Below are positions 10,105-48,920 of a DNA stretch of 64,000 nucleotides, piece after piece. Position numbers and translations under genes: made by a program. The first letter of the stretch is position 1. Each line of letters starts with the position of its first letter. Under the pieces are notes generated by a model. That model was not told the DNA's origin. It was given only the letters and a program-made list of their open reading frames with translations, and made no database searches. This DNA comes from Prevotella sp. (lineage in GTDB: Bacteria; Bacteroidota; Bacteroidia; Bacteroidales; Dysgonomonadaceae): contig JAITVV010000081.1 of assembly GCA_031285625.1 (NCBI GenBank), positions 64,001 through 128,000 of the forward strand. Direction: 5' to 3'.

Positions 10105-10152
10105 AAAAGTAACAAAAGTAACAGTTTTCAGATATAAACACCTGTCACTTTC
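10105..10152. repeat. Dispersed DR-DR-spacer-IR element, copy 1
   Basis: AAAAGTAACAAAAGTAACA-N19-TGTCACTTTC. Confidence 0.75.
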
Positions 10153-10777
10153 GATACCGGTAACCGGGAGGGACCATCTGATCGGTAACACTTTTAATCG
10201 TAACATACCTGGATTTCTTCTCGGGTTGTGGTTCAATAACCGGGACTTCTGATAATGGTTTTGATTCATCAATTATCTCTCTCTTTTCTTTCGGTATCTG
10301 CGTACTCAATGTCTGCTGCAACAGATTCAGGTAATCTACCGATTTGGGATCGTTAACGGTTATCATCAGTGCCGGATGCGAACTTTCTTTAGCACGCTCA
10401 TGCCTATTGTTATCTCCAGCCAGTAACAGCTTTATCGCATGTGTATCAGGGGCGTATTCTTTTTGTCTTACTACTTGTGACTTTAGTGCCAGTTTTTCAG
10501 GATTATCCTTATCAGGCACATAAGTCGTACGGGTCTCAGTGAGAGTATAGCCTTCCAGTTTTCTCTTCAGTGACTTACGGGCTATCAGCAACAATTTATC
10601 ATCGCGACGATCTGTTGCCTTTTCTATGGCTTTCTCAAATTCAGGCTTGGTATCCTTCCATTCATAAAATGTTTTACGACTTAGTTTTAGTATACTACAT
10701 ATTTCAGAAATACTATAGGTATCTTCTTCGATAAGAGACACAATTTTCTCGACTAATTTTTCGGTGTATTTTGACAT
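10145..10777 (-). CDS. Phage terminase-small-subunit-like (phBC6A51-type) helix-turn-helix protein, orphan
   Basis: N-terminal HTH (SISEICSILKLSRKTFYEWK...PEF), SLKRKLEGY and PDTHAI motifs resemble that family; no other phage genes nearby. Confidence 0.65.
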   Translation of the reverse strand: MSKYTEKLVEKIVSLIEEDTYSISEICSILKLSRKTFYEWKDTKPEFEKAIEKATDRRDDKLLLIARKSLKRKLEGYTLTETRTTYVPDKDNPEKLALKSQVVRQKEYAPDTHAIKLLLAGDNNRHERAKESSHPALMITVNDPKSVDYLNLLQQTLSTQIPKEKREIIDESKPLSEVPVIEPQPEKKSRYVTIKSVTDQMVPPGYRYRK

Positions 10778-10865
10778 ATCTGTTATAAGTTAGAGGTTAA
10801 TAATCTCACTTATAATAGATAAATATTGTAGGAAATTATGCTATATCAAATAGTGATTTACATAA

Positions 10866-12686
10866 TCACCTGCGGAACAGGTGTTTAAATTGATGGGAAT
10901 ATAATTTGGATAGCCCCTGCCTGTTGTCAATGGCATCCCCTACAACAATCATTGTTGTCAGCGTCAGCTTATTCTCCTTTATTATTTTTGCCAGATCCTG
11001 TAATTGCCCTCTGTAAATACGTTCATCTTTCCATGTCAGTTTATAACATGCCGCAATTGGTGTAGTTGGCGGATAATGTTCCAATAATTCTTTTTGAACA
11101 TTCTCAACTACTGTGGCACTAAGAAAAATACATATGGTACTCTGTGAGCGAGCGAGTAAATGAAGTTTCTCTTTATCAGGCATTGGCGTACGACCTTCTC
11201 CTCTTGTCAGGATGATCGTCTGTACTTTCTCAGGTATCGTAAATTGTGACCTGAGAGCAGCTGCAGCGGCCTGAAAAGATGATATACCCGGGGTGATGTG
11301 GTAAGACATATTGTATTCATCGAAGAAAGCCATTTGTTCCTGTATAGCACCATAGATGCACGGATCGCCTGTGTGTAAGCGTACAACAAGTGCACCTCTG
11401 TCATAGAACTCTTTCATCAGAGTAAATTGTTCCTCCAGGTCCATTGATGCGGAACTACGGACTACAGCTCCCTCTTTGGCACAATATGTAAGTTCTATAG
11501 GAACAAGGCTTCCGGCATATAGAATGAGATCGGCCTCTTCAAGAAACTGACGGCCTTTGACAGAGACGAGGTCAGGGTCACCGGGGCCTGCACCTACTAT
11601 TTCGATATGTCCCTGACGAATGGCTGACCGATTGAGAGCAATAGCAAAAGTGAAGTCATTTCCTTTACTTAATACACCTTTTTGTTTCTCCATGATCAAC
11701 TGTCCATAGTCTGCACTCTTGATTGCTGTGGATTCGGATACTCCCTGTACCGAGGTTACTTTTTCCACCTTTTCAGAAGGGTTAGGCACTTCAATATCTT
11801 TCAGTTCATCGGCAGAATAGATATTTACAGGTATATCGTTCAGATACTGTTGAAGGTCTCTTAGTAAGGCTTCATCCTTCTTAATATCGATGGAGGATAT
11901 ATCGGCTATGGAATGTATGGAGATGGAGTTATTTGTTATAGCTTCTGATATGTATTTAGCAATATCTTCCGGATTACAATCTTTCCGACAGCCTATACCC
12001 AGATGCAGAACCTTCGGATGATAACAGATTGTTTGTATTTCTGTTTCAGGATACAGAAAAGGAGTAACAGCAATAAGCAAGTCATACTTATCCTGTCTGA
12101 TGTCTGTATATCTGTAATATATATCTACATGGTCAGGCTTTGTCCTTTCCATATAGGCAGTTCCTTCATCTTTGATATCGAGAAGTAAGGCAACAGGCTT
12201 TTTATTCACAAACGTAGTCAGAGGAGAATTGAAGTTCTCTGCATTAGTATTTGTTGTCCATTCATATTGCTTACCTAAAGTGTCCAATGCCCACAAGCCT
12301 GTGTTGTCACTCTGAGTCGTGATAATAGCGTTTCCTCCGATGATATGGGCTATCTGACTTGTCAGGTCGTTGGCCCCTCCTACATGTCCTGAAAGTACGG
12401 ATATTACATTCTTACCTGTACTATCGATATTGATTACGGCAGGGTCTGTATGTTTATCTTTTATATAAGGTGCAATGCTCCGTACACAAATACCCATTGC
12501 TCCGATGAAAACGATAGATTCTACTTCCGAAAAGAGCTCAGCTACACAATTGCTAATGGAGTCTATATGCTCTGTTCCATCGATCTTATTCTTACTGTAT
12601 ATCTTTGATCCGGTTAATTCTTTGCTTATTGTTTCAGCTAAAGGATAGCTGCTTTCAGATGTGAGGATTATCGCTGTCTTTATCAT
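10866..12686 (-). CDS. cobM: CbiG-CobM(CbiF) fusion: cobalt-precorrin-5A hydrolase plus precorrin-4 C11-methyltransferase
   Basis: KHTDPAV/LSGHVGGAN/LGIGCRK (CbiG) followed by VGAGPGDPDL, RLHTGDP and TPGISS (CobM). Confidence 0.92.
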   Translation of the reverse strand: MIKTAIILTSESSYPLAETISKELTGSKIYSKNKIDGTEHIDSISNCVAELFSEVESIVFIGAMGICVRSIAPYIKDKHTDPAVINIDSTGKNVISVLSGHVGGANDLTSQIAHIIGGNAIITTQSDNTGLWALDTLGKQYEWTTNTNAENFNSPLTTFVNKKPVALLLDIKDEGTAYMERTKPDHVDIYYRYTDIRQDKYDLLIAVTPFLYPETEIQTICYHPKVLHLGIGCRKDCNPEDIAKYISEAITNNSISIHSIADISSIDIKKDEALLRDLQQYLNDIPVNIYSADELKDIEVPNPSEKVEKVTSVQGVSESTAIKSADYGQLIMEKQKGVLSKGNDFTFAIALNRSAIRQGHIEIVGAGPGDPDLVSVKGRQFLEEADLILYAGSLVPIELTYCAKEGAVVRSSASMDLEEQFTLMKEFYDRGALVVRLHTGDPCIYGAIQEQMAFFDEYNMSYHITPGISSFQAAAAALRSQFTIPEKVQTIILTRGEGRTPMPDKEKLHLLARSQSTICIFLSATVVENVQKELLEHYPPTTPIAACYKLTWKDERIYRGQLQDLAKIIKENKLTLTTMIVVGDAIDNRQGLSKLYSHQFKHLFRR

Positions 12687-12687
12687 C

Positions 12688-13878: not shown

Positions 13879-13880
13879 GA

Positions 13881-21424: not shown

Positions 21425-23620
21425 TCATTTACTAAATTTTACTTTCAGACTCACATAATAAGTACGTCCGGGAGAGAGCGTCGCATAGTTTTGATTGAAA
21501 GGCTTGTCATCAACAAAGTCGAAGATGTTTTCGATACCAAATCCGGGCTCAAATACAATTCCGTTATAATCTTTGAATGTATGACGTGTGGCAAAGTTCC
21601 ATAACTGATATGCACGGGCATCGTCACCATTGTCATAGTATCTGCGACTTTGCAGACGTCCGTTTATATTGAAGTTAGATCTTAATATACCCCAGTCTTT
21701 ATACCAGTTTGCGTTTACATTTCCTGTATGCCTGCTTATCCTCTGCAGACGTTTGCCTGTATCGAGATCTTTAGCGTTTACATAACTATATCCACCACCC
21801 AATGTGATGTTATATCCGAGGTATGAACTAAAAGTAAAGTCAACCCCCTGAATCCGTGCCTTTCCAATATTCTCATATGATGATTTCTTATCATATCCTT
21901 CAGCTATTTCTTCAGGAGTCATATCCATTTCAATTATCTCAATCTTATTTTTTAGATCATTGATGTAGCCGTTTACAGACATTGTAAGAAAACTACTCAT
22001 ATATTCTGCATTCAGGGAATAATAATTGGAACTTTCAGGTTTCAGGTTTTTATTACCCACACTCAGAGTCGTCTTTCCTCTGCTGGTAACCTCTGTCTTC
22101 ATGAATAATTGCTTGAGATCAGGAGTCTTAAATCCGGAAGCGTACGATGCCCTGAAATTAAAGTTACTCAGTGAATACATTGCACTCAGCTTGGGGGTCA
22201 CCCTGTTCTTGAATGTTTCGTTGTAGATATAGCGTATACCGGGAACAATATTCAGTTTATCAAAAAGCTTGATCTCATCCTGAGCATACACTGCCATAGT
22301 ATAGACATCCTTTGATCCTCCTATACTGTCTGATGGAGCATAAAGATTATCAACCTTGTATTCCGTTCCGACAGTCACTTTATTGTATTTTCCTGCATAG
22401 AAAGAACCTTTAAGGTTGATATTGGTATATTTTTGCCTTCTTACAAATTCTTCCTGTCCAACGGCAAATACGGTACCGTTCTTATCTTTTGTTTCTTTCA
22501 GGTAATCTTTATAATACTCGAATTTATCAGTATTCCAATCCAAGGATATTACACCATTATTTTTCAATAGATACTTCGCTCCTGCTCCAAATGAATAGTC
22601 TTCATATCTCATATCAAAGCCATAAGCACTTACAGGGCGTTTAAACTTTTTATCGAAAATACTTCCTTCAACATATATGCTGAAATCCTTTGTTGGAGCA
22701 TATCCGAATCTTTGACTAAGTACATCGGAATAGAATCGTAGCATAGCTTGTTTGTCTGTATCTACCAATTCATCATTAAGCATTTCTTTTGTATTCAGCT
22801 GCCAGCCATCAGCCTGATTCCGTTGAAAAGATGTAGAGGAAGAAAAACCATCTGCATTCAGGTATAAGTTAACATTCTGTGTTAACTGTCCATATTTTGA
22901 GAGACGGGTTTCTGCCGAAAAGTTTATCAGGTCTTTAGGTTTATTTGTTATTATATTAATAACTCCTGCCATGGCATCAGAACCATAAAGAGAAGATGCC
23001 GCACCTTTCAGGACTTCTATTCTCTTCACATTACTCATGTCTATCCTGTTAAGATCTGTATTGCCACCTACATCCCCTCCCATTTTTTTACCGTCAACCA
23101 GCACTAATATATATCTGTTGCTTAAGCCATTGAGTTGCATATAAGACCCCATGGCATTAGGTGTGAAAGACAACGAGGGATTAAGGGCGGTCATGGCATT
23201 CTCGAAAGTCGGGATACTTACATTTTCCAGTTCTCTTTTAGAGATTACATCTATCACTACAGGAGAATTCTTGAGTTTGTTGAGGGTTCCTGTTCCTGTT
23301 ACCACCACTTCATTTAGTTTGAGGGGTGAGCGTTCCATCTTCACAAGAACATTTTCGTTAGAGTCACTTACAGGCATCCGTCCTCCGGTATAGTCCAGAG
23401 CACTCACTCTCAGGAGTTGGTCTCCTTCGGGTACTTTTTCCAGATAGAATTCACCTCTTGAGTCGGTAGAAGTTCCGATGGTTGTGTATTCGATCCATAC
23501 ACTGGCTCCTGAAATAGGTTTCTGATTCTCATCAACAACTTTTCCTTTCAGTGTTAGTTGGGCAAACACCAAATTTACAGCACAGCATAATAATGCTGTC
23601 AGCAATACTTTCTTTTTCAT
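21425..23620 (-). CDS. TonB-dependent receptor, BtuB-like corrinoid transporter
   Basis: Carboxypeptidase-regulatory-like domain, VVVTGT, IEVLKGAASSLYGSDAMAGVINIIT; first gene downstream of the cobalamin riboswitch. Confidence 0.88.
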   Translation of the reverse strand: MKKKVLLTALLCCAVNLVFAQLTLKGKVVDENQKPISGASVWIEYTTIGTSTDSRGEFYLEKVPEGDQLLRVSALDYTGGRMPVSDSNENVLVKMERSPLKLNEVVVTGTGTLNKLKNSPVVIDVISKRELENVSIPTFENAMTALNPSLSFTPNAMGSYMQLNGLSNRYILVLVDGKKMGGDVGGNTDLNRIDMSNVKRIEVLKGAASSLYGSDAMAGVINIITNKPKDLINFSAETRLSKYGQLTQNVNLYLNADGFSSSTSFQRNQADGWQLNTKEMLNDELVDTDKQAMLRFYSDVLSQRFGYAPTKDFSIYVEGSIFDKKFKRPVSAYGFDMRYEDYSFGAGAKYLLKNNGVISLDWNTDKFEYYKDYLKETKDKNGTVFAVGQEEFVRRQKYTNINLKGSFYAGKYNKVTVGTEYKVDNLYAPSDSIGGSKDVYTMAVYAQDEIKLFDKLNIVPGIRYIYNETFKNRVTPKLSAMYSLSNFNFRASYASGFKTPDLKQLFMKTEVTSRGKTTLSVGNKNLKPESSNYYSLNAEYMSSFLTMSVNGYINDLKNKIEIIEMDMTPEEIAEGYDKKSSYENIGKARIQGVDFTFSSYLGYNITLGGGYSYVNAKDLDTGKRLQRISRHTGNVNANWYKDWGILRSNFNINGRLQSRRYYDNGDDARAYQLWNFATRHTFKDYNGIVFEPGFGIENIFDFVDDKPFNQNYATLSPGRTYYVSLKVKFSK

Positions 23621-23685
23621 TAAGATTATGAAGTATAATGTTAGTCACTATATTCTTGGCCCCGAGAATATTATTTACTTGTTTG

Positions 23686-23862
23686 CCTGGCAGGTTTCCT
23701 GACTTACTCTATTTTGAACGCCTTCCCATTCTTATGAACAGTGGCAAAGTGATGTTCAAAACTTTTTAAAAGAGGTCACAGTAGCGGGCACTGTTCCGGA
23801 TTCTAACCGGATTCCCTTTTTATGTAAATAGACGGATGCCTATATACATCACCTAAGCGGTG
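23686..23862 (-). ncRNA. Cobalamin (AdoCbl) riboswitch
   Basis: Minus strand reads AGGGAATCCGGTTAGAATCCGGAACAGTGCCCGCTACTGTG...GCCACTG...GGGAAGGC...AGTCAGGAAACCTGCC (B12 box); lies upstream of the btuB-like gene. Ends are approximate. Confidence 0.95.
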
Positions 23863-23967
23863 GCAAAGTTAAATTTAAAAAATATTAGAAAAAAGGATTT
23901 TGAAGAATAATTTTTTTGAAAGATAAGTTTGTCTTATATATAGAGGTCTTTGAAATAATTGGGAGAA

Positions 23968-24018
23968 GAAAGTTACAACTAAAAATAGGTGGAAAAAGTG
24001 TTACTTTTGTCACCTTTT
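23968..24018. repeat. Dispersed DR-DR-spacer-IR element, copy 2 (reverse orientation)
   Basis: Reverse complement reads AAAAGGTGACAAAAGTAACA-N21-TGTAACTTTC. Confidence 0.75.
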
Positions 24019-24157
24019 ATATTAAACTCATCTATAAGTATCTGATAACATATTATTTAGATATAAATGCTAAAATAGTTGACTTTGTATATTTTGTTAC
24101 TTTTATTACTTAGAGATAAAAGCTTTTCATATTTTTGCAGGAACAAACGAAATCATT

Positions 24158-25453
24158 ATGCCAGATATTTCAAGTTTTCTTATTTCTGCAACTGCATCGG
24201 GATCCGGTAAAACCACCATTACATTAGGCCTGTTAAGAGCATTGAAAAACAGAGGACTGAACACCCAGCCTTTCAAATGTGGCCCCGACTATATCGATAC
24301 TAAATATCATGATCTGGCTTCCGGTAGTAAGTCAGTTAACCTTGACTTGTTTTTATCATCAGAGCAGCATGTAGAGGCAATATACAGAAAATATGCATCC
24401 AGATCAGACGTCAGCATCACTGAAGGTGTAATGGGATTATTTGATGGCTATGATAAGATGAAAGGAAGCAGCGCCGAGATTGCAGAATTATTAAACATTC
24501 CTGTTATTTTGATAATCAATGCAAAGTCAATGGCTTATTCTGCTGCTGCTATGCTTTATGGCTTCAAGAACTTTTATAAAAATATCAATCTGGTCGGAGT
24601 TATATTCAATTTTGTAGGTTCTGAAAGTCATTACGGATTTTTGAAAGAGGCCTGTCAGGCTGTCGGACTGGAAGCATTGGGGTATTTGCCGAAGAATGTG
24701 TCTGTCGAGATCCCATCAAGGCATTTAGGGTTAAGCCTTGATAAAGAATACCGTTTTGATGATTTTGCTGAGAATTTAGCTGCTCTGGTAGAGAAATATA
24801 TTGATATAGACAAATTATTAGCTCTGACCGTTAGTAAGGTTGAGCTTCCTGTTAATAAGCCTGTTATGTCTAATAAAAATCTGCGAATTGCCGTTGCTGC
24901 TGATGAGGCTTTCAATTTTATGTATCAGGAGAATCTGGAGCACTTTAATAAGATTGGGGATGTTTCCTATTTTAGTCCTCTCACTGATAAGGAGTTGCCC
25001 GATGCCGACTTAGTCTATTTGCCGGGAGGATATCCTGAATTGTATTTGAAGCAGTTGAGTGATAATCATTTGATGAAAAACAGTATCCAAAATTATATCG
25101 AAAATGGAGGATATCTGCTTGCCGAATGCGGTGGAATGATGTATTTATCTACCTCGATTTCGGATAAAGAAGGGAATGCCTATTCAATGGTGGGTATTTT
25201 CGATCAGAAAGCAACTATGGAAAATATGAAACTCAAGCTGGGATACAGGCAATTTGAATATAATAGCATAAGAATGAAAGGGCATGAGTTTCACTATTCT
25301 TCTATAGAGAGCAACGAAAGCAGTATTACTCAGCAGTTGAATGCAAAAGGGACTCCTGTAGATACCAAGCTAATGCGATATAAAAATACTATTGCAGGGT
25401 ATACTCATTTATATTGGGCTGAAATGGATAATATCACGGAGTTATTCAGATAG
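24158..25453 (+). CDS. cobB: Cobyrinate a,c-diamide synthase
   Basis: SGSGKTT, FKCGPDYID, EGVMGLFDG, SRHLGL, GGYPEL, AECGGMMYL and GHEFHYS motifs. Confidence 0.95.
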   Translation: MPDISSFLISATASGSGKTTITLGLLRALKNRGLNTQPFKCGPDYIDTKYHDLASGSKSVNLDLFLSSEQHVEAIYRKYASRSDVSITEGVMGLFDGYDKMKGSSAEIAELLNIPVILIINAKSMAYSAAAMLYGFKNFYKNINLVGVIFNFVGSESHYGFLKEACQAVGLEALGYLPKNVSVEIPSRHLGLSLDKEYRFDDFAENLAALVEKYIDIDKLLALTVSKVELPVNKPVMSNKNLRIAVAADEAFNFMYQENLEHFNKIGDVSYFSPLTDKELPDADLVYLPGGYPELYLKQLSDNHLMKNSIQNYIENGGYLLAECGGMMYLSTSISDKEGNAYSMVGIFDQKATMENMKLKLGYRQFEYNSIRMKGHEFHYSSIESNESSITQQLNAKGTPVDTKLMRYKNTIAGYTHLYWAEMDNITELFR

Positions 25454-25470
25454 GATCCTATCAAAAATCT

Positions 25471-26406
25471 TTATTTGCCATAAATCGCCCCCTGATAAGT
25501 TTCTCTTTCTGCAAAGCGTTTCAAAACTTTTGCGGTGAATTCGAAGTTTTTCAATCCCCAATCAGGTGCTATTAGGAGTTGCTTGGGAGACTGAGATATA
25601 AAACGTTCTATAATAAAGTCGGGATTCAATCTTTCTGCAAAATCAATACACAGATCAATATAATCATCTACTTTAAATAGATTGAACCACTCAGGATGCT
25701 CACGGTATTGTTTTGCCATAACTGTCCCCTTTATCAGTTGCAACTGATGCATTTTCAATGTTGTCAATGGCAACTTTGCCACAATATTGGCATGGGCCAG
25801 TATCTGCTCACGGCTTTCATGTGGTAACCCCAAAATAAGGTGTGCGCCGGTATATATCCCTTTATCGGCAGTTTTAAGAATAGCCTCCTCACTTTCCTGA
25901 TGTGTATGCCCCCGGTTGATAAACTTTAATGTGGAATCCAGCGTTGATTCCAGTCCATATTCGATAATCAGAAAAGTCTTTTTATTTAGTTCAGCAAAAT
26001 AATCCAATAGTTCATCTGGCATACAATCGGGTCTTGTACCAATAATCAGGCCAACCACATTAGGGTACGATAAGGCTTCTTCATATAATCCAATAAGCTT
26101 ATCTATGCTATCATATGTATTGGTATATGACTGAAAATAAGCCAGATATTTCATATCGGGATATTTGTAAGAAAAGAAATCAATCCCGTCTTTTAACTGA
26201 TCGCTCACGGTTCGCTGCCTGCCTCCATATCCTGGACTGAAACTTTGATTATTACAATATGTACAGCCTCCTACGGCTTTCGATCCATCCCTGTTGGGAC
26301 AGGTAAAGCCTGCATTAATCGATATTTTCTGGACTTTATATGGGAAGTGTTTTGAAAGTAGCTCTCCAAATTCTTTATAGAATTTATTTTCCATTATTTT
26401 ATTCAA
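25471..26406 (-). CDS. TIGR01212 family radical SAM protein (YhcC-like)
   Basis: GFTCPNRDG..GGCTYC, YFQSYTNTY and GTRPDC motifs. Confidence 0.92.
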   Translation of the reverse strand: MNKIMENKFYKEFGELLSKHFPYKVQKISINAGFTCPNRDGSKAVGGCTYCNNQSFSPGYGGRQRTVSDQLKDGIDFFSYKYPDMKYLAYFQSYTNTYDSIDKLIGLYEEALSYPNVVGLIIGTRPDCMPDELLDYFAELNKKTFLIIEYGLESTLDSTLKFINRGHTHQESEEAILKTADKGIYTGAHLILGLPHESREQILAHANIVAKLPLTTLKMHQLQLIKGTVMAKQYREHPEWFNLFKVDDYIDLCIDFAERLNPDFIIERFISQSPKQLLIAPDWGLKNFEFTAKVLKRFAERETYQGAIYGK

Positions 26407-26570
26407 TTTGTATGCAAAGGTAATAATATGTAGAATGAATTTATTTCATGATTTGTATTTTAACTCAAAACAATAAAGCCGAGGCTTACTAAAGAAAAAT
26501 CATTCATATACCTTTACTTCTGGGATATTCTTTATATTTGTTTCTAATTGTATTAAATTAACAATAGGCT

Positions 26571-27947
26571 ATGTTTCAATTTTTTAAAAGACTTTTTGGT
26601 ATAGAGGATAATCCTACCCCTCAAAAACAATTTATACAGACCACAACAGAGAAATCAATAAATGAATCTGCATCTGTTACTTTCCTTGATTTGATCAGTG
26701 AATGTTGCATTTCCGATGGGGAAAGCTATACTTTAAAACCCAAAGCAGATTGGAATCTTAGAGGTAAGCTTGACAGGGAATATGCATTTCTATTTAGGAA
26801 TCTAAAAGAGAACATTCACAAGCTGGATGATAAGGAAATAGAACAGGTTTATTATCTATGCCTGGTGGCAGGAAAGGTTTTGTATGACATTGAGCCTACA
26901 TACTATTTAATGGTAAAAGCATATAAAAAGTTTCTGAAGGACAAACATAACGGTTTCCTTAGTGGAGGGAATGGGTTATTTTTATTCGGATTTGACAATA
27001 AATTCAAAATAAATCCAGATCAGAAGTATGATGAATATAGACAATATTGTTTTTTCCTAATAGCAAATCCTGACTGCCATTTCGAAGTGGTTAGCTATCG
27101 TAGCTGGATGTGGAGATTGAGATATAAGCAGCCTTTTATTGCAAATGAAATCTGTTTACCCCGCATTTCCCAGATATTGAGAACTACGATTAGATCTGTA
27201 AAACAACAGGAAAAATATATGATGTGGCAGGCCTATTTTGTTTTGTTACTTAATCCTTCTCCGATATCTCAGGATACAATTGAATTCGTAGAATCTATAA
27301 AGACCAAATCGAAACAGTTTAAGAAGCAGCTTGAACGTATTGATGCTATAGCTAAAGATTACCAAGAAAATAATGACAGGCATTATTGGTATAAAATAAC
27401 GCTTGACGACCATTTGTTACAAAAACAAATAAAACTGGAACTTCAGGGTCAGAAAATCCCTGAACTTATTAAACCATTAGGATTAATACCTACTTCATTT
27501 AACTGGCGATTCTCGGTAGAATTTTCAACTGGCGATTTTTCAAAATGTAAAGAAAACCATAGACCAGCACCCGGCTTGACAAATAAAGACGCTATTCTGG
27601 GACTTCACATTTCAGCTGGAAATAAATGGGTTGTCGATTTGCAATGGTATCTGCCATCCGAAAAGGCTCATTATATCCGGGAGGCATCGCACGACCGCCC
27701 ACGCATTATGTGGCGTAATATGTACCAACATCCGATAAGTTACCAGCCTTCATTGAAAGAAAAAATTCCAGATTTTCAGGATATGCATAATTTCCCTGAA
27801 TTAGTAAATCAATTGCAGGAGATATTTAGTCTGGACTTTAAGAAACAGGCTGTTATTACGGTTAAAGGATTGAAAGTAGAAGATAAAATACCAATTGAAA
27901 AATGGCTGTCTCTTTGTGTTAACAGTGTCGTTTTTGAGAATGCATAG
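26571..27947 (+). CDS. Hypothetical protein
   Basis: 458-aa ORF with upstream TATATTTG -7-like box and downstream terminator; no recognised motif. Confidence 0.75.
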   Translation: MFQFFKRLFGIEDNPTPQKQFIQTTTEKSINESASVTFLDLISECCISDGESYTLKPKADWNLRGKLDREYAFLFRNLKENIHKLDDKEIEQVYYLCLVAGKVLYDIEPTYYLMVKAYKKFLKDKHNGFLSGGNGLFLFGFDNKFKINPDQKYDEYRQYCFFLIANPDCHFEVVSYRSWMWRLRYKQPFIANEICLPRISQILRTTIRSVKQQEKYMMWQAYFVLLLNPSPISQDTIEFVESIKTKSKQFKKQLERIDAIAKDYQENNDRHYWYKITLDDHLLQKQIKLELQGQKIPELIKPLGLIPTSFNWRFSVEFSTGDFSKCKENHRPAPGLTNKDAILGLHISAGNKWVVDLQWYLPSEKAHYIREASHDRPRIMWRNMYQHPISYQPSLKEKIPDFQDMHNFPELVNQLQEIFSLDFKKQAVITVKGLKVEDKIPIEKWLSLCVNSVVFENA

Positions 27948-27950
27948 GAT

Positions 27951-27979
27951 AAAAAAGCCCGATAAAATCAGGCTTTTTT
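27951..27979. terminator. Bidirectional intrinsic terminator
   Basis: AAAAAAGCCCGAT-AAA-ATCAGGCTTTTTT between convergent genes. Confidence 0.7.
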
Positions 27980-27991
27980 ATTTATATATTT

Positions 27992-28646
27992 CTAAAATTT
28001 ATATCCTAAGGATATAGATACATTCATATTTTTTACTGAGACGTCACTTCCATCAAATTGTCCCCATTCATCCATATCAAATATACCAAAGTCAGAGATA
28101 TTCACCAAACCGAAATCACAATTTACTCCTGCATTTATCTTTCCGAATTCGGCGCCAACACCAAAGCCTAATCCAAAATCAAATCTTTTCATTTTGATTC
28201 CTCCAGCTTCAGCATCATCACTAAATGCTCCTACACTGACCTCTGAGCCACCTTCTTTCACCTTCCACTTACCATCTACTGCGTAAGCAAGGTAAGGACC
28301 TGCATGAAATAGTATTCTTGTATCATTACTTACGGTTATTTTATATCCTGCATATAGGTAGTTGCAGATATGATAAGTTCAATTTTAAATTTGTATTGTC
28401 ATCTACTTTTGAGCCCTTTGTTGTAAACTCTAAACCGGTAAGTAAATAAAAATCAGGCGTCAAAGCATAATCAGCTGTTACTCCAACATTAAAACCTACT
28501 TTTAGTTTTGAATCCTCAAAATCACCACTAACATTAGACATATTCATTCCAGCCTTTACCCCAAAAGTCAAAGGTTTATTCTGTGCACTAGCTACTACTC
28601 CAATTAATAATGCAACTGTAATCAAACTTGCCTTAATAGCTTTCAT
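27992..28646 (-). pseudogene. Porin family (outer-membrane beta-barrel) gene, frameshifted near 28352
   Basis: N-part FGVKAGMNMSN...YLQLPI continues in another frame as AGYKITVSNDTRILFHAGPYLAYAVDGK...ISLGYKF. Confidence 0.85.
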
Positions 28647-28732
28647 ATAATCTTTTTTAGTTAATTAGTTAAGTTATTTAAATCTAAACCCTGTAAAGAT
28701 ATTCTTTTTTTAAATAGCATGCTGCCTATATA

Positions 28733-28770
28733 TAGATAAAAGCCTCATAAAAATATGAGGCTTTTATCTA
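28733..28770. terminator. Intrinsic terminator hairpin
   Basis: TAGATAAAAGCCTCATA-AAAA-TATGAGGCTTTTATCTA. Confidence 0.8.
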
Positions 28771-28789
28771 TCTTTTTAATTCTAAGATT

Positions 28790-29422
28790 TTAGAATAAAA
28801 ATTTAACACCTACCTGTAGTTCACCCACAGTACGGTCACCTATTGATTTAAAAGGATTAGCATTAAACTCGAAAGAGGTACTGCCATCGCCTCCTTTAGG
28901 TTTTGAACGAGAGTAACCTGTATTCAAAATTGTGAATGAAGTTTCAATTGTTAACCAGCTGTTTATAACATAATCAAATCCTGGAGACAATTCTAAACCA
29001 ATATTAGTAGTATTAGTTTTACCAGAATCCTTAGCTCCTTCAGAATTACCAATAATCACAGGTAAAGCTGCCTGTCCAAAGAAGAAAAGTCCACCAGAAA
29101 TATTCCAGTATTTTCTAACTAATGGTTTTACAACAAAATTATTGGTTTTCAAGTATTGTTCTCCTTCAATTTTGGAATTACCACCCATATATCCTAGACC
29201 AATACCTAAAGCTACATCAGGTGAGACGAAGGTACCAATAATAGGTAACACAGTTGTATTTGTGATTTTTTGTTCACCAGTAACATCTCCCACTTTAACT
29301 CCTTTATTTTTCGCACTGCCAAAAGATAATTGACCACCAGCAAACCATGTACCTTTGAGACCTTGTGCACTAACACACATACTGATGACAGCCAAAACTG
29401 CCACTAAGAATAATTTTTTCAT
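28790..29422 (-). CDS. Outer-membrane beta-barrel protein
   Basis: Signal peptide, alternating beta-strands, C-terminal GVKFLF. Confidence 0.85.
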   Translation of the reverse strand: MKKLFLVAVLAVISMCVSAQGLKGTWFAGGQLSFGSAKNKGVKVGDVTGEQKITNTTVLPIIGTFVSPDVALGIGLGYMGGNSKIEGEQYLKTNNFVVKPLVRKYWNISGGLFFFGQAALPVIIGNSEGAKDSGKTNTTNIGLELSPGFDYVINSWLTIETSFTILNTGYSRSKPKGGDGSTSFEFNANPFKSIGDRTVGELQVGVKFLF

Positions 29423-29550
29423 AGCTTTTAAATTTAAAAAGTGACTAAATAACTTAACTCTATTTCCAGTTTTCTCTATTATTGTAGCCGTAAATATAGC
29501 TAAATTTTTATAAATTTCACATTTTAAACTTAAAAAATAGTTTTTTTATG

Positions 29551-30321
29551 TTAATCTGAAATAATTGTACCTGAATTGTCACTCAAATGTGTGGCACTCG
29601 TTATTATTACTTCTTTAACCCCTGCTTTTATGGCTTCAAAAGAGTTCTCAAGCTTAGGAATCATCCCTCCCTGAATTACACCTTCATTAACCAGCCTCTT
29701 AAAATCTCCTTCGTCTAATCTTGGTATAACACTATCATCATCATTCTCATCCATCAATACACCTTTTTTCTCAAAACAGAAAACCAGGCTTACATCAAAA
29801 ACTTTGGCCAAAGCTTTTGCAGTTTCTCCCGCTATTGTATCTGCATTTGTATTCAGTATATTTCCCTTTCCATCATGTGTTAACGGTGCCAGTATAGGCA
29901 CTACACCCTGAGAAATAAGGTTGGATAGTATATTTATATTCACTTCTTTTACATCACCAACATATCCGTAATCAATATCTTTAACCGGACGCTTCTCCGA
30001 ACAAATAAGATTCAGGTCGGTACCTGTAAGCCCAAGGGCATTCACACCTAAGGCCTGTAAACCTGCGACAATATTTTTATTGACCAGTCCCCCATAGACC
30101 ATTGTTACCACCTGTAATGTATCCTTATCGGTTATCCGGCGACCATTTACCATCCGGCTTTCAATACCAAGCCTTTCGGCCAGTTTAGTTGCAGAACGTC
30201 CTCCTCCATGTACGAGGATCTTATACCCTTCTATAGGGGAAAAATCTTTAAGTAATTGTTGTAGCGATTGTTCTTCTTCAACAATCTTCCCTCCTACTTT
30301 TATAATCGTCAGCTTATCCAT
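29551..30321 (-). CDS. argB: Acetylglutamate kinase
   Basis: IKVGG, VHGGG, GRRITD, NTNADTIA and GGMIPKL motifs. Confidence 0.95.
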   Translation of the reverse strand: MDKLTIIKVGGKIVEEEQSLQQLLKDFSPIEGYKILVHGGGRSATKLAERLGIESRMVNGRRITDKDTLQVVTMVYGGLVNKNIVAGLQALGVNALGLTGTDLNLICSEKRPVKDIDYGYVGDVKEVNINILSNLISQGVVPILAPLTHDGKGNILNTNADTIAGETAKALAKVFDVSLVFCFEKKGVLMDENDDDSVIPRLDEGDFKRLVNEGVIQGGMIPKLENSFEAIKAGVKEVIITSATHLSDNSGTIISD

Positions 30322-30350
30322 TTCAATTTTATTATTTATTCAACTCTAAG

Positions 30351-30400
30351 AAAAAGTAACAAAAGTAACACCTTTTCAACCATTTTATATTGTCACTTTT
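30351..30400. repeat. Dispersed DR-DR-spacer-IR element, copy 3
   Basis: AAAAAGTAACAAAAGTAACA-N20-TGTCACTTTT. Confidence 0.75.
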
Positions 30401-30478
30401 ATTTAAAACGGCAATCATTTAAAGATTGTCTTATATAAGACAAATTAAAGTGCAAATAACATGTAGAATACAAAAATA

Positions 30479-30512
30479 AAAAGAGATTGAATCTGATGAA
30501 ACAATCTCTTTT
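30479..30512 (-). terminator. Intrinsic terminator after rpsO
   Basis: AAAAGAGATTG...CAATCTCTTTT. Confidence 0.65.
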
Positions 30513-30531
30513 AAATTTTCGCTGGAAAGAA

Positions 30532-30801
30532 TTACTTTCTGATACCTAATTCTTTGATGATAGCACGATATCTTTCGATATCGTTATCGATCAGATAGTC
30601 AAGCAAACGACGACGTTTACCTACAAGGCGTCTTAGTGATCTTTCTGTGTTATAGTCCTTCTTATTTAACTTCAAATGTTCAGTTAAATGCGAAATACGG
30701 TATGAAAACAATGCTATCTGAGCTTCAGGTGAGCCAGTATCAGTGTTAGACTTTCCGTATTTAGCGAAGAGTTCTTGCTTTTTAGCTGAATCTAAATACA
30801 T
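30532..30801 (-). CDS. rpsO: 30S ribosomal protein S15
   Basis: DTGSPEAQIA, HLK..KKD, LVGKRRRLLDYL; 89 aa. Confidence 0.98.
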   Translation of the reverse strand: MYLDSAKKQELFAKYGKSNTDTGSPEAQIALFSYRISHLTEHLKLNKKDYNTERSLRRLVGKRRRLLDYLIDNDIERYRAIIKELGIRK

Positions 30802-30888
30802 AAGTAATTATTTATAATTTATTTAAACGAGGTGCAAAGATAAAACTTATTTTGTGAGTCACAAACATTTAAGCCATAAAATGCAGGG

Positions 30889-31254
30889 TTAGAATGGCAA
30901 ATCATCTCCTTCGTCACTGCTACTAAAATCAACTGGAGCAGATGGAGCTTGTTGTTGTGGAGCAGCTTGCGGGGGTACAGGAGCACCTGCTCCGGCCGGA
31001 TCTACCTTCCATGCCCTAAGGTCTGTATACCAGTTTCCATTATATTCACGGCTCTCGATATCAAAAGAAACATCAAGTATATTTCCAACTTGTAATATTG
31101 ATTCATTAATTTTATCTCCCCATAATGTCATGCATACTTTCTTAGGATACATACCATCAGTTTCCAGAATTATATTCTGTTTTCTCCACTCTCCGTTCTT
31201 TCCCATACCGGTTTGTATAGGCATTACCTGAATCAATTTAGCTGTTAATTGCAT
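30889..31254 (-). CDS. DUF3127 family protein (SSB-like acidic DDLPF tail)
   Basis: YPKKVC, FDIESREYNGNWYT and DDLPF motifs. Confidence 0.88.
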   Translation of the reverse strand: MQLTAKLIQVMPIQTGMGKNGEWRKQNIILETDGMYPKKVCMTLWGDKINESILQVGNILDVSFDIESREYNGNWYTDLRAWKVDPAGAGAPVPPQAAPQQQAPSAPVDFSSSDEGDDLPF

Positions 31255-31334
31255 TATAATTAGTTTTGTTTATATTTCAAAATGGAGCATAAAGGTATAA
31301 AAAAATCAGGAATTTTCAATTTTTGCCAGGATTC

Positions 31335-32507
31335 CTATTTCCTTTTTCCGATCCATGTCAGTTTTTTCCAAATATATTCTAACGGGCCGTGTTTATAATT
31401 TTTCATCCACCAGTAAGAAAACAGATACTGCAATAAAAATAAGACGATACCAAGCAAAAATGAATATGTGACTCCCAATTTATTATGCAAGCTTAAACCC
31501 CAGTTATAAAACAGAGCTGAGCCAATAATCGACTGCATAATATAGTTAGTGAGCGTCATTTTTCCATAAGGACGAAGCTTATCCAACAATTTATGTCCTT
31601 TCGCTGTCTTATAATAGAGTAATATTACCAGAGCAACGAGGAATGACATAAATGCCAGATTTGAAAGAGATCTTATTATCAACGCCAAAGGCCTCAAAAC
31701 AGCCTTATTCTCAATAAAGCCGGGAATAAGATTAACCAGACCATTGAGTGGAAGAAAGCAAATAATACCTATAACTAATACCTTTATCCAAAAAGATGCA
31801 TTTTGCTCGTTATATTTAAATAATCCACTTCTGCCGATTAGCATACCAAACATAAAAAGGGCCGGAGTCTGAAAAAAGCGGGCATTTTCCCAGGCCCATG
31901 TAAGGCTTGCGAGTTGTCCGTCCCATAAATTCATTTTCACTGTTTCCAGAAATGTACCGGCTTCCTGTACAGGATAAGCGTTACCAAAGTAATAATTGGC
32001 CAGAGGTTTTCCAGGTATATAATCAGGATTTAATAAAGCATATATAAGTTTACCCCATTCCATAGGCTGCAACATCAGTATAGTTGCTATAATGACCACT
32101 GTTCTTGTCTTGAGTCGTGCCACAAAAATCAACAACACTCCTACAATGGAATACAATACTAATATTTCACCTGTAAAAAACATAGCATTGATATTTCCCC
32201 AGATAAACAACAGGAATAATCTCCATAGGAATCTCAATCTGAAATCATTTCCTCTTTCCAGCTGGTTATTATCCTGAATAAAAAAGCTGAAACCAAATAA
32301 CAGGGCAAATATGCCGTATGCTTTTCCTCCGAAGGTGAAAAACATAGAATCCCATATCATTTTATCGGTAAACTTCAGAAAAGAGCTATCTGTTTCGGGA
32401 AAAGAATAAAAATTGAAATGTTCGATACAATGAAGCAGGAAAATGCCCATTATAGCAAAACCTCTGAGCGCATCTGCCACATCGATGCGCTGTTGTATTT
32501 TTGTCAT
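31335..32507 (-). CDS. DUF418 family membrane protein
   Basis: RIDVADALRGFA, GKMTLTNYIMQS and GPLEYIW motifs. Confidence 0.9.
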   Translation of the reverse strand: MTKIQQRIDVADALRGFAIMGIFLLHCIEHFNFYSFPETDSSFLKFTDKMIWDSMFFTFGGKAYGIFALLFGFSFFIQDNNQLERGNDFRLRFLWRLFLLFIWGNINAMFFTGEILVLYSIVGVLLIFVARLKTRTVVIIATILMLQPMEWGKLIYALLNPDYIPGKPLANYYFGNAYPVQEAGTFLETVKMNLWDGQLASLTWAWENARFFQTPALFMFGMLIGRSGLFKYNEQNASFWIKVLVIGIICFLPLNGLVNLIPGFIENKAVLRPLALIIRSLSNLAFMSFLVALVILLYYKTAKGHKLLDKLRPYGKMTLTNYIMQSIIGSALFYNWGLSLHNKLGVTYSFLLGIVLFLLQYLFSYWWMKNYKHGPLEYIWKKLTWIGKRK

Positions 32508-44181: not shown

Positions 44182-44185
44182 TATT

Positions 44186-44512: not shown

Positions 44513-44513
44513 G

Positions 44514-45705: not shown

Positions 45706-45706
45706 A

Positions 45707-45736
45707 AAAGATCGGTACATTCATGTACCGATCTTT
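45707..45736. terminator. Bidirectional intrinsic terminator
   Basis: AAAGATCGGTACAT-TC-ATGTACCGATCTTT. Confidence 0.8.
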
Positions 45737-45767
45737 CCATATTAGTATATAACTAATAATCAACCTA

Positions 45768-46004: not shown

Positions 46005-46159
46005 AAAATATATAATCAATTAAAATATGTGTAAATCTAATTATTGCAAATGTATATCCGATTCTGATATATACGAGTTAATACTCAGTTAAAAAATCAG
46101 TTATATCTCTAAGTTTACTAAAGAGCCTACTATACTTGAACGTTTTATAAAACAGAATA

Positions 46160-46711
46160 TTATATAGTAGCTTCCACTTTTTCTAGAAATGCCTGTCTAT
46201 CTTCATCCGAACCTTTTGAGGTTCCTACACAACTTAACCAGACAGCGTTGCGGATACCTACAGGATTAAGCATGTCCCCAATGAATCCGTTTTCTATATT
46301 ATGCTTAAAATTAGGGCTTGGATGCTCGGATGTAGTGATCACAAAAGCCTTATCTATCTTCAATAATGGATTAAATCCCCCTTCGTAATTAAAGGCAAAA
46401 TCTTTAAGCAGAACTTTATCGAAGAAACCCTTTAATATACCGGGCATTGTATTCCACCAGTTAGGAAAGATGAATATTATCTCATCAGACTTACCAATAA
46501 CCTCCTGGTATCCCAGAATAAGCGGATCAAGCGCTTTTCCCTGATTATACACCGACAGTTCCTCTTCTGAAAACACGGGATTGAACTTATCTTTATGCAA
46601 GTCTATTACCACATAAGGTTTATTTTCCTTATCATATTTAGCTGTGATAGTATCCTGAATTGCCTTGTTAAAACTACCGTGCCACGGATGGGCAAAAACG
46701 ATTGTTACCAT
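46160..46711 (-). CDS. Flavodoxin-fold NAD(P)H-dependent oxidoreductase
   Basis: AHPWHGSFN and FPNWWNTMPGILKGFFDKV motifs. Confidence 0.9.
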   Translation of the reverse strand: MVTIVFAHPWHGSFNKAIQDTITAKYDKENKPYVVIDLHKDKFNPVFSEEELSVYNQGKALDPLILGYQEVIGKSDEIIFIFPNWWNTMPGILKGFFDKVLLKDFAFNYEGGFNPLLKIDKAFVITTSEHPSPNFKHNIENGFIGDMLNPVGIRNAVWLSCVGTSKGSDEDRQAFLEKVEATI

Positions 46712-46729
46712 ATTGTCTCTGATTTTACT

Positions 46730-47509
46730 TTATCCTGCTACATTTACCTTAATGCCTAAATCTTTAACCCTCTCCCCTATCCTCTTCAAATCCTCAACAG
46801 AGACCTTTTCGAGGTTTTTTTCGGGAGTTTCCCTGTCGATAGTATAAATCATTACTTCACGGGGATTTGTGTCTCTGACGGCTTCTAACCATGCTGAAAC
46901 TTCTTCTTCCGTTGTGTTATCCACTATCTTCCCATTATGACTGCCTCTCACAAACATTGTTTGCATAATAAAATCACCATCAAACCGCTTAAATAAAGCT
47001 ATTTGCTTTTCTATACTATATTCCGGCGAATTAGGACGGTCTATCAGGCGGACAGTGTCGATAATAGCCGAGTCGAGCTTAAGAATATTATTATCAACTT
47101 TTTTTAAAGCATTAAATACTTTTTCTTTTCCGGCATGCATAGCATTAGATAGTACACTTATCTTAGCATCAGGATAATACTTATCCCTTAATTCAATCGT
47201 GTCATCTATTATTTCAGCAAACTGAGGATGCAATGTAGGTTCTCCATTTCCGGCAAAAGTAATGACATCGATTGGTGTATTCTCTTTCTGTAGCTGCAAT
47301 AATTTATCCTCCAGCGCAGCCTTCACATTCTCTCTGGTGGGGAGTTTTGTTTTCGTCCTGAAATTTTCATTATACCCGCATTCACAATAAATGCAGTCGA
47401 ATGAACACAACTTACCGTCATACGGAAGCAAGTTCATGCCTAAAGATGATCCTAAACGACGGCTGTGAATAGGGCCAAAAACGATTTCGTGAAACAGTAT
47501 AGTCGACAT
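46730..47509 (-). CDS. Radical SAM protein
   Basis: GPIHSRRLGSSLG, CSFDCIYCECG and GNGEPTLHP motifs. Confidence 0.92.
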   Translation of the reverse strand: MSTILFHEIVFGPIHSRRLGSSLGMNLLPYDGKLCSFDCIYCECGYNENFRTKTKLPTRENVKAALEDKLLQLQKENTPIDVITFAGNGEPTLHPQFAEIIDDTIELRDKYYPDAKISVLSNAMHAGKEKVFNALKKVDNNILKLDSAIIDTVRLIDRPNSPEYSIEKQIALFKRFDGDFIMQTMFVRGSHNGKIVDNTTEEEVSAWLEAVRDTNPREVMIYTIDRETPEKNLEKVSVEDLKRIGERVKDLGIKVNVAG

Positions 47510-47517
47510 ATGTTATT

Positions 47518-48075
47518 TTAAAATTTTTGTAAACTTTTTCCTTTTTGCATAGCTTTCAAAACATTTTTGCGTACAGTGTGTATCGCAGGAGTCAGATCTC
47601 CTTCCATTATTTCCAAGGTAGCTTTCAGTTCCCTTGTCAATTCAGGAATAGTACGACAAAGTTCGTAAGCAATTTTCATACATAAAGATTGTACTCCCGG
47701 CAGCTCTTTAGCTGATAGCATCCGCTCTAAACAAAAGTCAAGGAAATCAACTCTCGGCGGATTACTCAGGGGCTGTTTAAATAGCAGATTAAGCATAACC
47801 CTTCGTCTTCCTCCATGCTCACAGACTAACACCTCATCTATCAATTCATCCTGCTTATTGTACAACCATTTATTATCTTGTGGAGAAAAATGAGAAAGAA
47901 TCCAGGCCGCATGATACCCCAAATAGTTATCATTATTAATCGCCAGATCATATAATTCCTGTTTTCTGCTATCATTTAAATGAATCAGAGGAAGTATTTC
48001 ATTAATATCATTCGCGGCAAAACTTACTGCCGACAGCTTCTCTTCTAAATCTATAAGATCGCAAAGTTTCTCCAT
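47518..48075 (-). CDS. Hypothetical helical-repeat-like protein (start uncertain)
   Basis: AAWILSH and LCMKIAYELC segments; the upstream ORF extension overlaps the next gene and is probably non-coding. Confidence 0.65.
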   Translation of the reverse strand: MEKLCDLIDLEEKLSAVSFAANDINEILPLIHLNDSRKQELYDLAINNDNYLGYHAAWILSHFSPQDNKWLYNKQDELIDEVLVCEHGGRRRVMLNLLFKQPLSNPPRVDFLDFCLERMLSAKELPGVQSLCMKIAYELCRTIPELTRELKATLEIMEGDLTPAIHTVRKNVLKAMQKGKSLQKF

Positions 48076-48133
48076 TTCAATTAACAAAGTTACAGGCTTT
48101 TCAAATATTAGCCTCAAATATTCACTTAATTCT

Positions 48134-48790
48134 TTATAAACTATCAGCTTTATCCGAGTCACCGATTCTGGTATATATTCTTCCTTTCCACCACATGGGT
48201 TCTTCAGTATTATCCGGATCATCGAACATGAAATCAAACTCAGCTTTCAGAATGCCTTTTTTCCACATTCTGCTATCTATGCTGATCGTTCCGCTTTTAT
48301 AGCTGAAATATTGTAAACCGGAGGGCGAAACACTATTCAGTTCAATCTGTGGAATACATTCGTTATTAATTATAGATAGCTGCAAACTGGAATGAGTCGC
48401 CACATTACACAACGTGTAGCATCTCACAGTATCCCCCACCCTGTATGCAATAGCAAAATCCGTACCAGCCCACTCATAACATTGAGCCTGGCTAGATATA
48501 GAATGATAAAAATGAGTGGTATCCACAAGTTGATAATAACGGCTTAAAGAATCTTTCAGAATTCTGCCATTCATATCCCGCATATCATCTAACGCTTCAT
48601 CACACAGTCCGTCACAAACCAATTGTCCAAACTGATTTAAGAATATGTTCTCGCCATAGCTCCATTTCTGAGTGAAGGAAAAATCTCCTTGAAGATCGTC
48701 AACCCATTGAATTCTAACATTTTCGTTTCTTGTTCCACATGAAACAAAAAGAGTAAGGAGAAACAGTGTCAAGGTCGTTGTAGTTTTCAT
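48134..48790 (-). CDS. Hypothetical lipoprotein
   Basis: MKTTTTLTLFLLTLFVSC lipobox; several Cys. Confidence 0.75.
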   Translation of the reverse strand: MKTTTTLTLFLLTLFVSCGTRNENVRIQWVDDLQGDFSFTQKWSYGENIFLNQFGQLVCDGLCDEALDDMRDMNGRILKDSLSRYYQLVDTTHFYHSISSQAQCYEWAGTDFAIAYRVGDTVRCYTLCNVATHSSLQLSIINNECIPQIELNSVSPSGLQYFSYKSGTISIDSRMWKKGILKAEFDFMFDDPDNTEEPMWWKGRIYTRIGDSDKADSL

Positions 48791-48867
48791 ATTATAAGAA
48801 TAAAAAAGTAACACAATCCACAAGTTTGTAACTTTTATAAATATTTAATTTTCAAATAATTGTATCA

Positions 48868-48920
48868 AAAAGGTGACAAAAGTAACAGTTTTATATATGT
48901 TTTAGTAATGTAACCTTTTT
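48868..48920. repeat. Dispersed DR-DR-spacer-IR element, copy 4
   Basis: AAAAGGTGACAAAAGTAACA-N21-TGTAACCTTTT. Confidence 0.75.

Follow-up and report, generated by a model that had tools for sequence, protein, structure and literature searches.

Canonical promoters of the Bacteroidota carry a -33 TTTG and a -7 TAnnTTTG element, as cited in the available part of Ryan et al. (2020; PMC7366714). The same paper describes PM2 of Bacteroides thetaiotaomicron, a near-palindromic non-canonical promoter with elements near -30 and -10. In the accessible parts of that paper and of a second one, PM2 is assigned to 75 coding genes with a bias towards oxidative stress and is linked to less expressed genes (PMC7366714, PMC12596196). 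The GibS and BT_4614 promoters, which are of this type, read GAAC-N17-TGTT (PMC7366714 supplement), TGTT stands at about -10 in PM2-type promoters (PMC12596196), and the site proposed for an extracytoplasmic function (ECF) sigma factor, SigW-1, is likened to PM2 in one of the two. Here we report a dispersed module of about 50 bp in a 64,000-nucleotide stretch of a genome of the Dysgonomonadaceae (assembly GCA_031285625.1, contig JAITVV010000081.1), referred to below as the window. Four complete copies lie in the window, each aimed at the start of a gene, and the genome holds many more. We put at about one half the probability that this is a lineage-specific promoter or operator module which is read by an oligomeric DNA-binding protein and is gained and lost by turnover of short segments.

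Promoter-bearing repeats are known in the form of the neisserial Correia elements. REP sequences and REPINs are short inverted repeats moved by RAYT transposases, with hundreds of intergenic copies located at gene ends. Cooperative operators composed of short repeats, such as the omega repressor heptads and the MetJ metboxes, are found at a handful of promoters. Highly similar promoter-like sequences before non-homologous genes, described as reused or mobile promoters, are reported in the available part of Nijveen et al. (2012; PMC3575422), and the accessible text on RNA-guided transcription by dCas12f with sigma-E gives up to seven targets per guide (PMC13472631). A literature search by unit strings and by topic, with preprint (bioRxiv) supplements outside its coverage, returned no description of the present element. 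The unit strings gave only chance matches to primers and oligonucleotides, one of which is the unrelated BtAraR operator. As far as these searches go, the element is undescribed.

Read towards the gene, the module consists of an inverted unit (AAARGTNACA), a spacer of 19-21 nt and two tandem units (TGTYACYTT-TGTYACYTTTT). All four window copies follow this plan, with the inverted unit AAAGTNACA, a spacer of 19-21 nt and then TGTTACTTT-TGTYACYTTTT, and every one of them contains TACTTTTG in the gene-ward reading. The tandem ends face the start codons at 10051(-), 24158(+), 30321(-) and 48790(-). A first-pass annotation, made by a model from the letters of this DNA, had placed four copies here; reading the sequence confirmed them, with boundaries within 1 nt of those claimed, and added two partial copies (24095-24111 and 48802-48836) that were absent from its list. 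The features, with the open reading frames (ORFs) at which the copies aim, are as follows.

7313-10051, minus strand: target of copy 1, an outer-membrane receptor gene with a CarboxypepD_reg-like N-terminus (Pfam).
10104..10151, minus strand: element copy 1; tandem units 10104-10123, 19-nt spacer 10124-10142, inverted unit 10143-10151.
23969..24018, plus strand: element copy 2; inverted unit 23969-23977, 21-nt spacer 23978-23998, tandem units 23999-24018.
24095..24111, plus strand: degenerate tandem pair TGTTACTTTTATTACTT, with one G-to-A change in unit 2, between copy 2 and its gene.
24130..24137, plus strand: canonical Bacteroidota -7 box TATTTTTG, 21 nt before the ATG at 24158; a proximal promoter candidate.
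24158-25453, plus strand: target of copy 2, cobB, of CbiA/CobQ type (Pfam).
29551-30321, minus strand: target of copy 3, argB, 35 nt from the element; AA_kinase (Pfam).
30351..30400, minus strand: element copy 3; tandem units 30351-30370, 20-nt spacer 30371-30390, inverted unit 30391-30400.
48790 (start), minus strand: the ORF that is the target of copy 4, from sequence reading.
48802..48836, minus strand: variant module; single unit 48802-48813 (TGTTACTTTTTT gene-ward), 13-nt spacer, inverted unit 48827-48836.
48867..48920, minus strand: element copy 4; tandem units 48867-48887, 21-nt spacer 48888-48908, inverted unit 48909-48920.

The variant module ends 11 nt before the start codon at 48790, and the inverted unit of copy 1 abuts the stop of an ORF at 10145-10777(-). 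With up to two mismatches, the core 15-mer GTAACAAAAGTAACA matches the window six times compared with 0.22 expected, a number reached in none of 100 shuffles.

The whole assembly was scanned (4.84 Mb, 96 contigs, 37% G+C) against crude gene calls, namely greedy ORFs of at least 90 amino acids, which gave 3801 genes and 88% coding sequence. A strict pattern recovered 140 elements and a relaxed one (GTNACAAARGTNACA) 182; the reversed control of the latter has no match genome-wide. None of the 182 overlaps an ORF call, and the spacer is 19-21 nt long in 144 of them. The tandem end points toward a gene start in 166 of the 179 elements that have a neighbour on that side, as had been noted for the window. 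Where the flanking genes run in the same direction, 112 elements are oriented toward the downstream gene and three the opposite way (binomial p 1e-29). Distances from element to start codon have a median of 97 nt and peak at 20-30 nt, and many elements lie 30-60 nt after the stop of the upstream gene. The observation is therefore confirmed as real, abundant and far larger than first reported, with an excess over shuffled sequence in the window and with spacer length and orientation conserved genome-wide.

All 117 distinct targets of the strict set were compared with Pfam (60 + 57). They share no functional theme, which extends to 117 of 117 the earlier remark that the four genes in the window are unrelated. 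Among the targets are dxs, aroB, aroC, folP, panB, coaBC, cobT, pheT, trmD, ligA, cmk and ppa, together with rpiA, hisIE, ilvA, mfd, clpB, mutS2 and tex, as well as genes for glycoside hydrolases, outer-membrane receptors and a small number of regulators; the 117 include none for a ribosomal protein. The host is of Dysgonomonas type, its FolP matching that of D. termitidis best (83% amino-acid identity), and near-identical DNA is present in insect- and termite-gut sequencing runs.

Spacer length falls into two classes, 18-22 nt in 151 copies and 27-31 nt in 12, with no copy at 23-26 nt. The two classes with an empty interval between them suggest helical phasing, and A-tracts recur in the spacer about one helical turn apart. 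The spacing between the -35 and -10 elements of a sigma factor would not tolerate ten extra bases. The simplest reading of this architecture would be one protein species at all three units, with the upstream and tandem-bound copies meeting on the same face of the bent DNA. Between the two arms there is no covariation, the central base being unable to pair in 46 of 116 arm pairs, which rules out an RNA hairpin or terminator and indicates a DNA/protein site whose conserved letters are read as double-stranded DNA. The variable positions of the tandem units are all C/T on the gene-direction strand. In a position weight matrix (PWM) the 20-nt tandem block holds 31.9 bits, and scores are all-or-none, with 187 intergenic sites at or above 28 bits versus 30 at 10-26 bits and no genic site at or above 28, a distribution that is partly circular as the PWM was built from matched sites.

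Outside the units the copies are unrelated. Among 82 copies the 20-nt spacers resemble one another no better than column-shuffled ones do (mean best match of 14.98/20 versus 14.39), 30-nt flanks in this genome are about as alike as their column shuffles, and the sole identical spacer pair falls within a repeated gene end of greater length. The edges of 151 copies were examined for direct repeats, which would mark a target-site duplication, and these equal the shuffled-pair control. Terminal inverted repeats of 11 bp are present (AAAARGTNACA ... TGTNACYTTTT). Since the units are conserved while spacers and boundaries resemble shuffled controls, the units are held by selection in this genome, and there is no sign of recent copy-and-paste.

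In so far as the available parts of the PM2 reports allow comparison, the module resembles PM2 in being near-palindromic, its GTAACA ... TGTTAC (TAACA-N20-TGTT) recalling the GAACA ... TGTTA of GibS. It differs from PM2 as described there in an AAC-to-TGT spacing of 20-22 nt in 144 of the 182 copies, compared with 17 in PM2, and it alone has a second tandem unit, a spacing class 9-10 nt longer, far stronger conservation and some 180 copies; nor do its targets show a theme comparable to the oxidative-stress bias of PM2. Its likeness to the canonical promoter lies in the 112 of 182 copies with TAYYTTTG placed for a start in the second unit and in the distance peak at 20-30 nt, but there is no -33 TTTG, the TA appears dispensable and about 20 further positions are conserved. 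With mobile promoters, as far as the accessible account goes, and with Correia elements it shares a promoter-like sequence at non-homologous genes that differs between close relatives; unlike them, it conserves only the 9-bp units, with unrelated spacers and flanks and no target-site duplication. REPs and REPINs are likewise short inverted repeats with a variable middle in species-specific intergenic populations, whereas the module lacks hairpin complementarity, stands in a genome with no Y1 gene and is strictly oriented at gene starts. Like the omega and MetJ operators it is composed of contiguous direct and inverted units of 7-9 bp that overlap promoters, but it stands at about 180 unrelated promoters and has families with different units.

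The first-pass annotation had also seen a fit to the -7 promoter consensus within the element. The genome does possess ordinary Bacteroidota promoters, as indicated by the forward excess of TAnnTTTG in 2392 upstream regions (1463 forward versus 826 reverse, at a median of 55 nt before the start codon). The first tandem unit and the junction spell TAYYTTTG in 112 of the 182 elements, CAYYTTTG in 61 and AAYYTTTG in nine, so that the embedded box stands for the 112 and the TA is not conserved in the other 70. At about 19-23 nt upstream of the -7 box, no -33 TTTG is found; the consensus there is GTNACA followed by the A-rich spacer. The YTTTT after the second tandem unit is 88-99% conserved. Among 166 elements, 56 lie less than 60 nt from the start codon, and in none of these is a further TAnnTTTG found ahead of the gene. 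On the upstream side of the inverted unit the density of canonical boxes is that of the background (2.0 forward and 1.7 reverse per kb), and such a box precedes only 32 of 164 elements. With no second box near the gene and no enrichment upstream, the element is often the sole promoter candidate. At folP (17 nt) and trmD (22 nt) it is the only one, barring read-through from upstream.

We refer to the TGTYACYTT module as family A. Sister families keep the architecture and change the units. Family C was found in the genome G116, reached through the Dysgonomonas locus L090, where folP is preceded by AAAAAGGATACA, N30 and then TGTATCATT-TGTGTCATTTT. It has two units of TGTGTCATT and the arm AAAAGGAYACA, and its tandem block occurs 54 times (up to three mismatches) versus once for the control. 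In the 12 of these 54 loci from which its details were taken, the spacer is 19-20 or 30 nt and all 12 modules aim at an ORF 7-285 nt away. In five of the 12 the distance from the end of the module to the ORF is 7-34 nt, and a canonical box is found neither in that interval nor within 150 nt upstream. Family B has two units of TGTCARSTT and the arm AAGCTGACA, with 37 copies in G003, 28 in G005 and one in the present genome; all five G005 copies in the region compared have a G003 counterpart. In G095, which belongs to a second genus of the family, composite modules some 150 bp long (L332-L354) can be aligned with one another and stand 90-517 nt before unrelated ORFs. They comprise three tandem units and, after about 40 nt, an inverted unit, which is followed at about 22 nt by a further unit with a TACTTTTTG-like box, and 11 of 12 loci have no canonical box between module and gene. 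Constant architecture with jointly changing central bases is expected of a protein that co-evolves with its site, or of paralogous proteins, and either would give the concerted change of the four central bases that is seen in all three units.

The strict core is present in 19 of 24 other genomes of the genus, in 0 to 506 copies, and in none of 16 genomes from other families of the order. A relaxed tandem pattern is abundant in eight of ten congeners sampled and reaches 70-172 copies in five of ten genomes of the second genus; elsewhere it occurs 0-1 times per genome, equal to the control. At orthologous promoters the element is often missing. Near argB it is present in three of 18 species (G000, G022 and G019), with units conserved and the spacer diverged, and the other 15 lack it, mostly having only about 25-45 nt between the rpsO terminator and argB. 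The aroC element is found in one of 25 species, and tandem units before trmD in six of 26, at differing distances. At cobB, G022 and G088 have 21 nt in place of the 203-nt segment 23919-24121 of the window. Orthologues of the copy 1 outer-membrane receptor gene in G022 and G019 lack the element, and the region orthologous to copy 4 was not found in five relatives. Empty sites in relatives could thus be seen at argB, aroC, cobB and the copy 1 gene but not at copy 4, and at argB and cobB it is a whole segment of 120-200 bp, element included, that is present or absent. A comparison of 190 kb between G003 and G005, of which 159 kb aligned at 83-96% identity (mostly about 93%), placed every tandem pair in a non-alignable intergenic gap, with only one of about nine family A positions in common. 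Copying is seen in relatives: G003 and G005 have longer repeats in common around the units, the composites of G095 can be aligned, and in G011 trmD is preceded by five tandem-unit copies at intervals of 65-94 bp (L274, positions ~2120-2459), which may account for some of the 506 matches in this 2.5-Mb genome. Presence at orthologous promoters turns over fast between species.

Several observations concern the surroundings of the window copies. An Rfam scan of the window gave a cobalamin riboswitch (RF00174, 88 bits) at 23672-23872(-) as its sole match, with none at the elements; it precedes an ORF at 21425-23620(-) and is divergent from copy 2. A near-identical strain (contig of run X2) has 198 different letters in place of the 67 nt at 24019-24085, a segment flanked by the tandem units of copy 2 on one side and by the degenerate pair at 24095 on the other. 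The 89-residue ORF at 30532-30801(-), which by eye we take to be rpsO (ribosomal protein S15), has its terminator just upstream of copy 3, in a stretch that is 86-90% identical in DNA across the genus. The argB element of G019 (L075) has its tandem units split by a mini-insert of about 30 nt (…GGTCACAGGAGC…AGCGTATGT…). The ORF that abuts copy 1 (10145-10777(-), 210 residues) has no Pfam match and belongs to a multi-copy family; the 3' end of this family together with the element recurs on contigs C26, C41 and C89, and G022, G019 and G088 have several paralogues.

Elsewhere in the assembly other repeats adjoin the elements. A multi-copy insert lies exactly between the two tandem units in constant orientation; 816 bp of its right part are assembled and its middle is unassembled. 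Its left junctions are at C12:~121, C46:~112, C58:~204, C49:~200 and C83:39139, and its right junctions at C10:818, C64:818, C23:107, C74:117 and C25:59770. The left end bears a unit-like 9-mer of its own, and the right 816 bp encode a small RNase H-like ORF, for which a word-based search gave no longer relatives and an exhaustive search matched small RNase H-like proteins. The insert was not found in 25 congeners, and Rfam has no match on it. A hairpin repeat of about 95 bp (TTGTCATCCTGAGGAACGAAGGATCTC ... CGTCAGCATGACAA) occurs in 30 copies (e.g. C80:155487-155580 and C69:79550-79640), none of them seen in the window; 12 of the 30 have an element no more than 150 nt away, and several of these stand 8-13 nt past its inverted unit. 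The G019 mini-insert sequence also occurs inside the hairpin repeats at C28:84311, C80:24984 and C91:101716.

Candidate binding factors and mobilizing enzymes were sought. Neither the ECF sigma factor L048 nor the XRE-cupin regulator L011 is co-distributed with the element across 81 genomes; orthologues of L048 are found in element-free genera, and several element-rich genomes have none. An ECF-type promoter was rejected on spacing, that of the module being too long compared with an AAC -35 element and a 16-17-nt spacer, and a second RpoD-type sigma factor on the single region-3 match in the genome. The search for transposases covered the Y1 and TnpB/Cas12f types. PF01797 (Y1) has no match in this genome (94% complete) and the arms lack hairpin complementarity, which argues against a RAYT/REPIN system; Y1 counts bear no relation to element counts in 26 genomes. 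PF07282 likewise has no match in this genome, against dCas12f or TnpB.

In the reading that we favour, TAYYTTTG would act as the -7 box, and the tandem units would then span about -15 to +5, with the inverted unit near -39, where a -33 element would be. One oligomeric protein would read all three units, its arm- and tandem-bound subunits touching across the bent spacer, and the complex would start or gate transcription of the gene on the tandem-unit side. We infer that transcription would begin in or at the tandem units, that a dedicated protein exists and that new copies would arise by insertion or duplication of short segments. Of the options that the first-pass annotation had offered, an operator or promoter for a multimeric protein is the best supported, given the orientation, the proximity to genes, the three units, the two spacer classes and the co-changing sister families. 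A nucleoid or packaging site is unsupported, as the modules are oriented by the gene next to them, and the genes that they precede are ordinary single loci.

Several results weigh against this interpretation. The TA is no more frequent where the element is the sole candidate (36 of 56) than elsewhere (68 of 110), and it is absent from 70 of the 182 copies and from the whole of family C. Pyrimidines occupy the expected start, 5-6 nt after TTTG. Among copies at least 60 nt from the gene, 62 of 110 have a canonical box in between. At aroC and cobB this box is a proximal promoter conserved in the genus, relatives having one (TACTTTTG) at the position of 24130..24137 in the case of cobB, and the element is therefore not needed there. 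Near-perfect conservation combined with fast turnover suits copying at least as well as selection in place. A binding protein was not found, and two candidates with the element in their own promoter failed the co-occurrence comparison. The four runs over window positions 23400-31400 consist of assembled contigs, which end or branch at elements and place no starts. One contig from an RNA library covers argB and extends to 30365, within the tandem units, with a DNA-like depth across genes.

A bolder form of the proposal is that the Dysgonomonadaceae possess a dedicated oligomeric initiation factor which would read TGT-NNNN-TT units instead of the -33/-7 elements, with orthogonal specificities YACY, CARS and GTCA that occur side by side or supplant one another from species to species, and with cognate modules that spread to new genes; we regard this as less likely than not and advance it only tentatively. 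It is somewhat unlikely that the sites are instead the operators of one global factor, probably a repressor occluding both the -7 box and the start, and have evolved in place without being copied. Such a regulon would fit the overlap of three same-motif units with the predicted core promoter, the phase-dependent spacer classes, the unrelated spacers and flanks with no target-site duplication, the retention of the argB copy in three species, where its units are conserved and its spacer has diverged, and the synteny of family B at five of five loci in G003 and G005. It is harder to reconcile with 31.9 bits and all-or-none sites, which far exceed the information needed for 182 sites in 4.8 Mb, with only one of about nine family A loci common to G003 and G005 despite mostly ~93% identity, with copy numbers from 0 to 506 among congeners, with the presence or absence of element-bearing 120-200-bp segments at argB and cobB, and with targets that lack a functional theme. 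Empty orthologous sites, species-specific variants and copy numbers, the tandem array of ~90-bp repeats in G011, the alignable ~150-bp composites of G095, the larger repeats common to G003 and G005, and the clustering of the multi-copy insert and hairpin repeat at elements would all suit a very small miniature inverted-repeat transposable element, as would an architecture like that of transposon ends, with two binding sites at one end, one at the other and 11-bp inverted termini. Two such ends would have been joined and moved by a transposase in trans, their promoter activity being incidental and only harmlessly aimed copies surviving. Spacers as unlike as shuffled controls in this genome, no target-site duplication above control in 151 copies, and no Y1/RAYT gene or TnpB/Cas12f-type domain (other transposase families were not searched) tell against this, and the 112:3 orientation bias and the 56 sole-candidate copies would demand selection for function, so we consider a selfish element of this kind unlikely. 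The idea in the first-pass annotation of a miniature mobile element that donates promoters has partial support, the fast presence and absence, species variants, tandem arrays and composites agreeing with it, and the unrelated spacers and flanks, the lack of target-site duplications and the lack, among the transposase types sought, of Y1 or TnpB not.

An orientation tied to one strand, exact-match conservation and a distance to the start codon that varies about a median of 97 nt could also arise if the tandem units acted in the 5' leader or on the non-template strand, through an RNA-binding protein or a NusG-type factor, with the promoter lying upstream. There is no upstream enrichment of canonical promoters, the stop of the preceding gene is 30-60 nt away for many copies, the inverted unit and the phase-dependent spacer are left without a role and the arms do not covary, which makes a transcribed leader very unlikely. 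Least probable of all, in our view, is a plain strong promoter of the primary sigma factor, with an extended -7 region and UP-like A-tracts and no extra factor. TAYYTTTG in 112 of 182 copies, the phased A-tracts and the resemblance of the trmD -7 region of other species (TTTACCTTTGTGC) to the tandem units are consistent with it, but the TA gives way to CA in 61 of the 182 and to AA in nine, and family C has GT in its place; a -33 TTTG is missing, a further copy of the unit lies upstream in inverted form and another covers the start site, and the units differ between species although there is only one region-3 sigma factor.

Even as a repeat family, the module explains why assemblies break in these intergenic regions and why other mobile DNA lands there. 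As a compact 50-bp part with natural unit variants it could be of use in engineering Bacteroidales, and its turnover between species whose genes are about 93% identical would make it a good system in which to follow the gain, loss and copying of promoters. Should a dedicated initiation factor exist, the families would amount to naturally occurring, mutually orthogonal pairs of factor and promoter in which the promoters are mobile. Were the module to start transcription, roughly one in ten promoter regions in these insect-gut Bacteroidales would depend on a non-canonical signal that is unseen by annotation tools.

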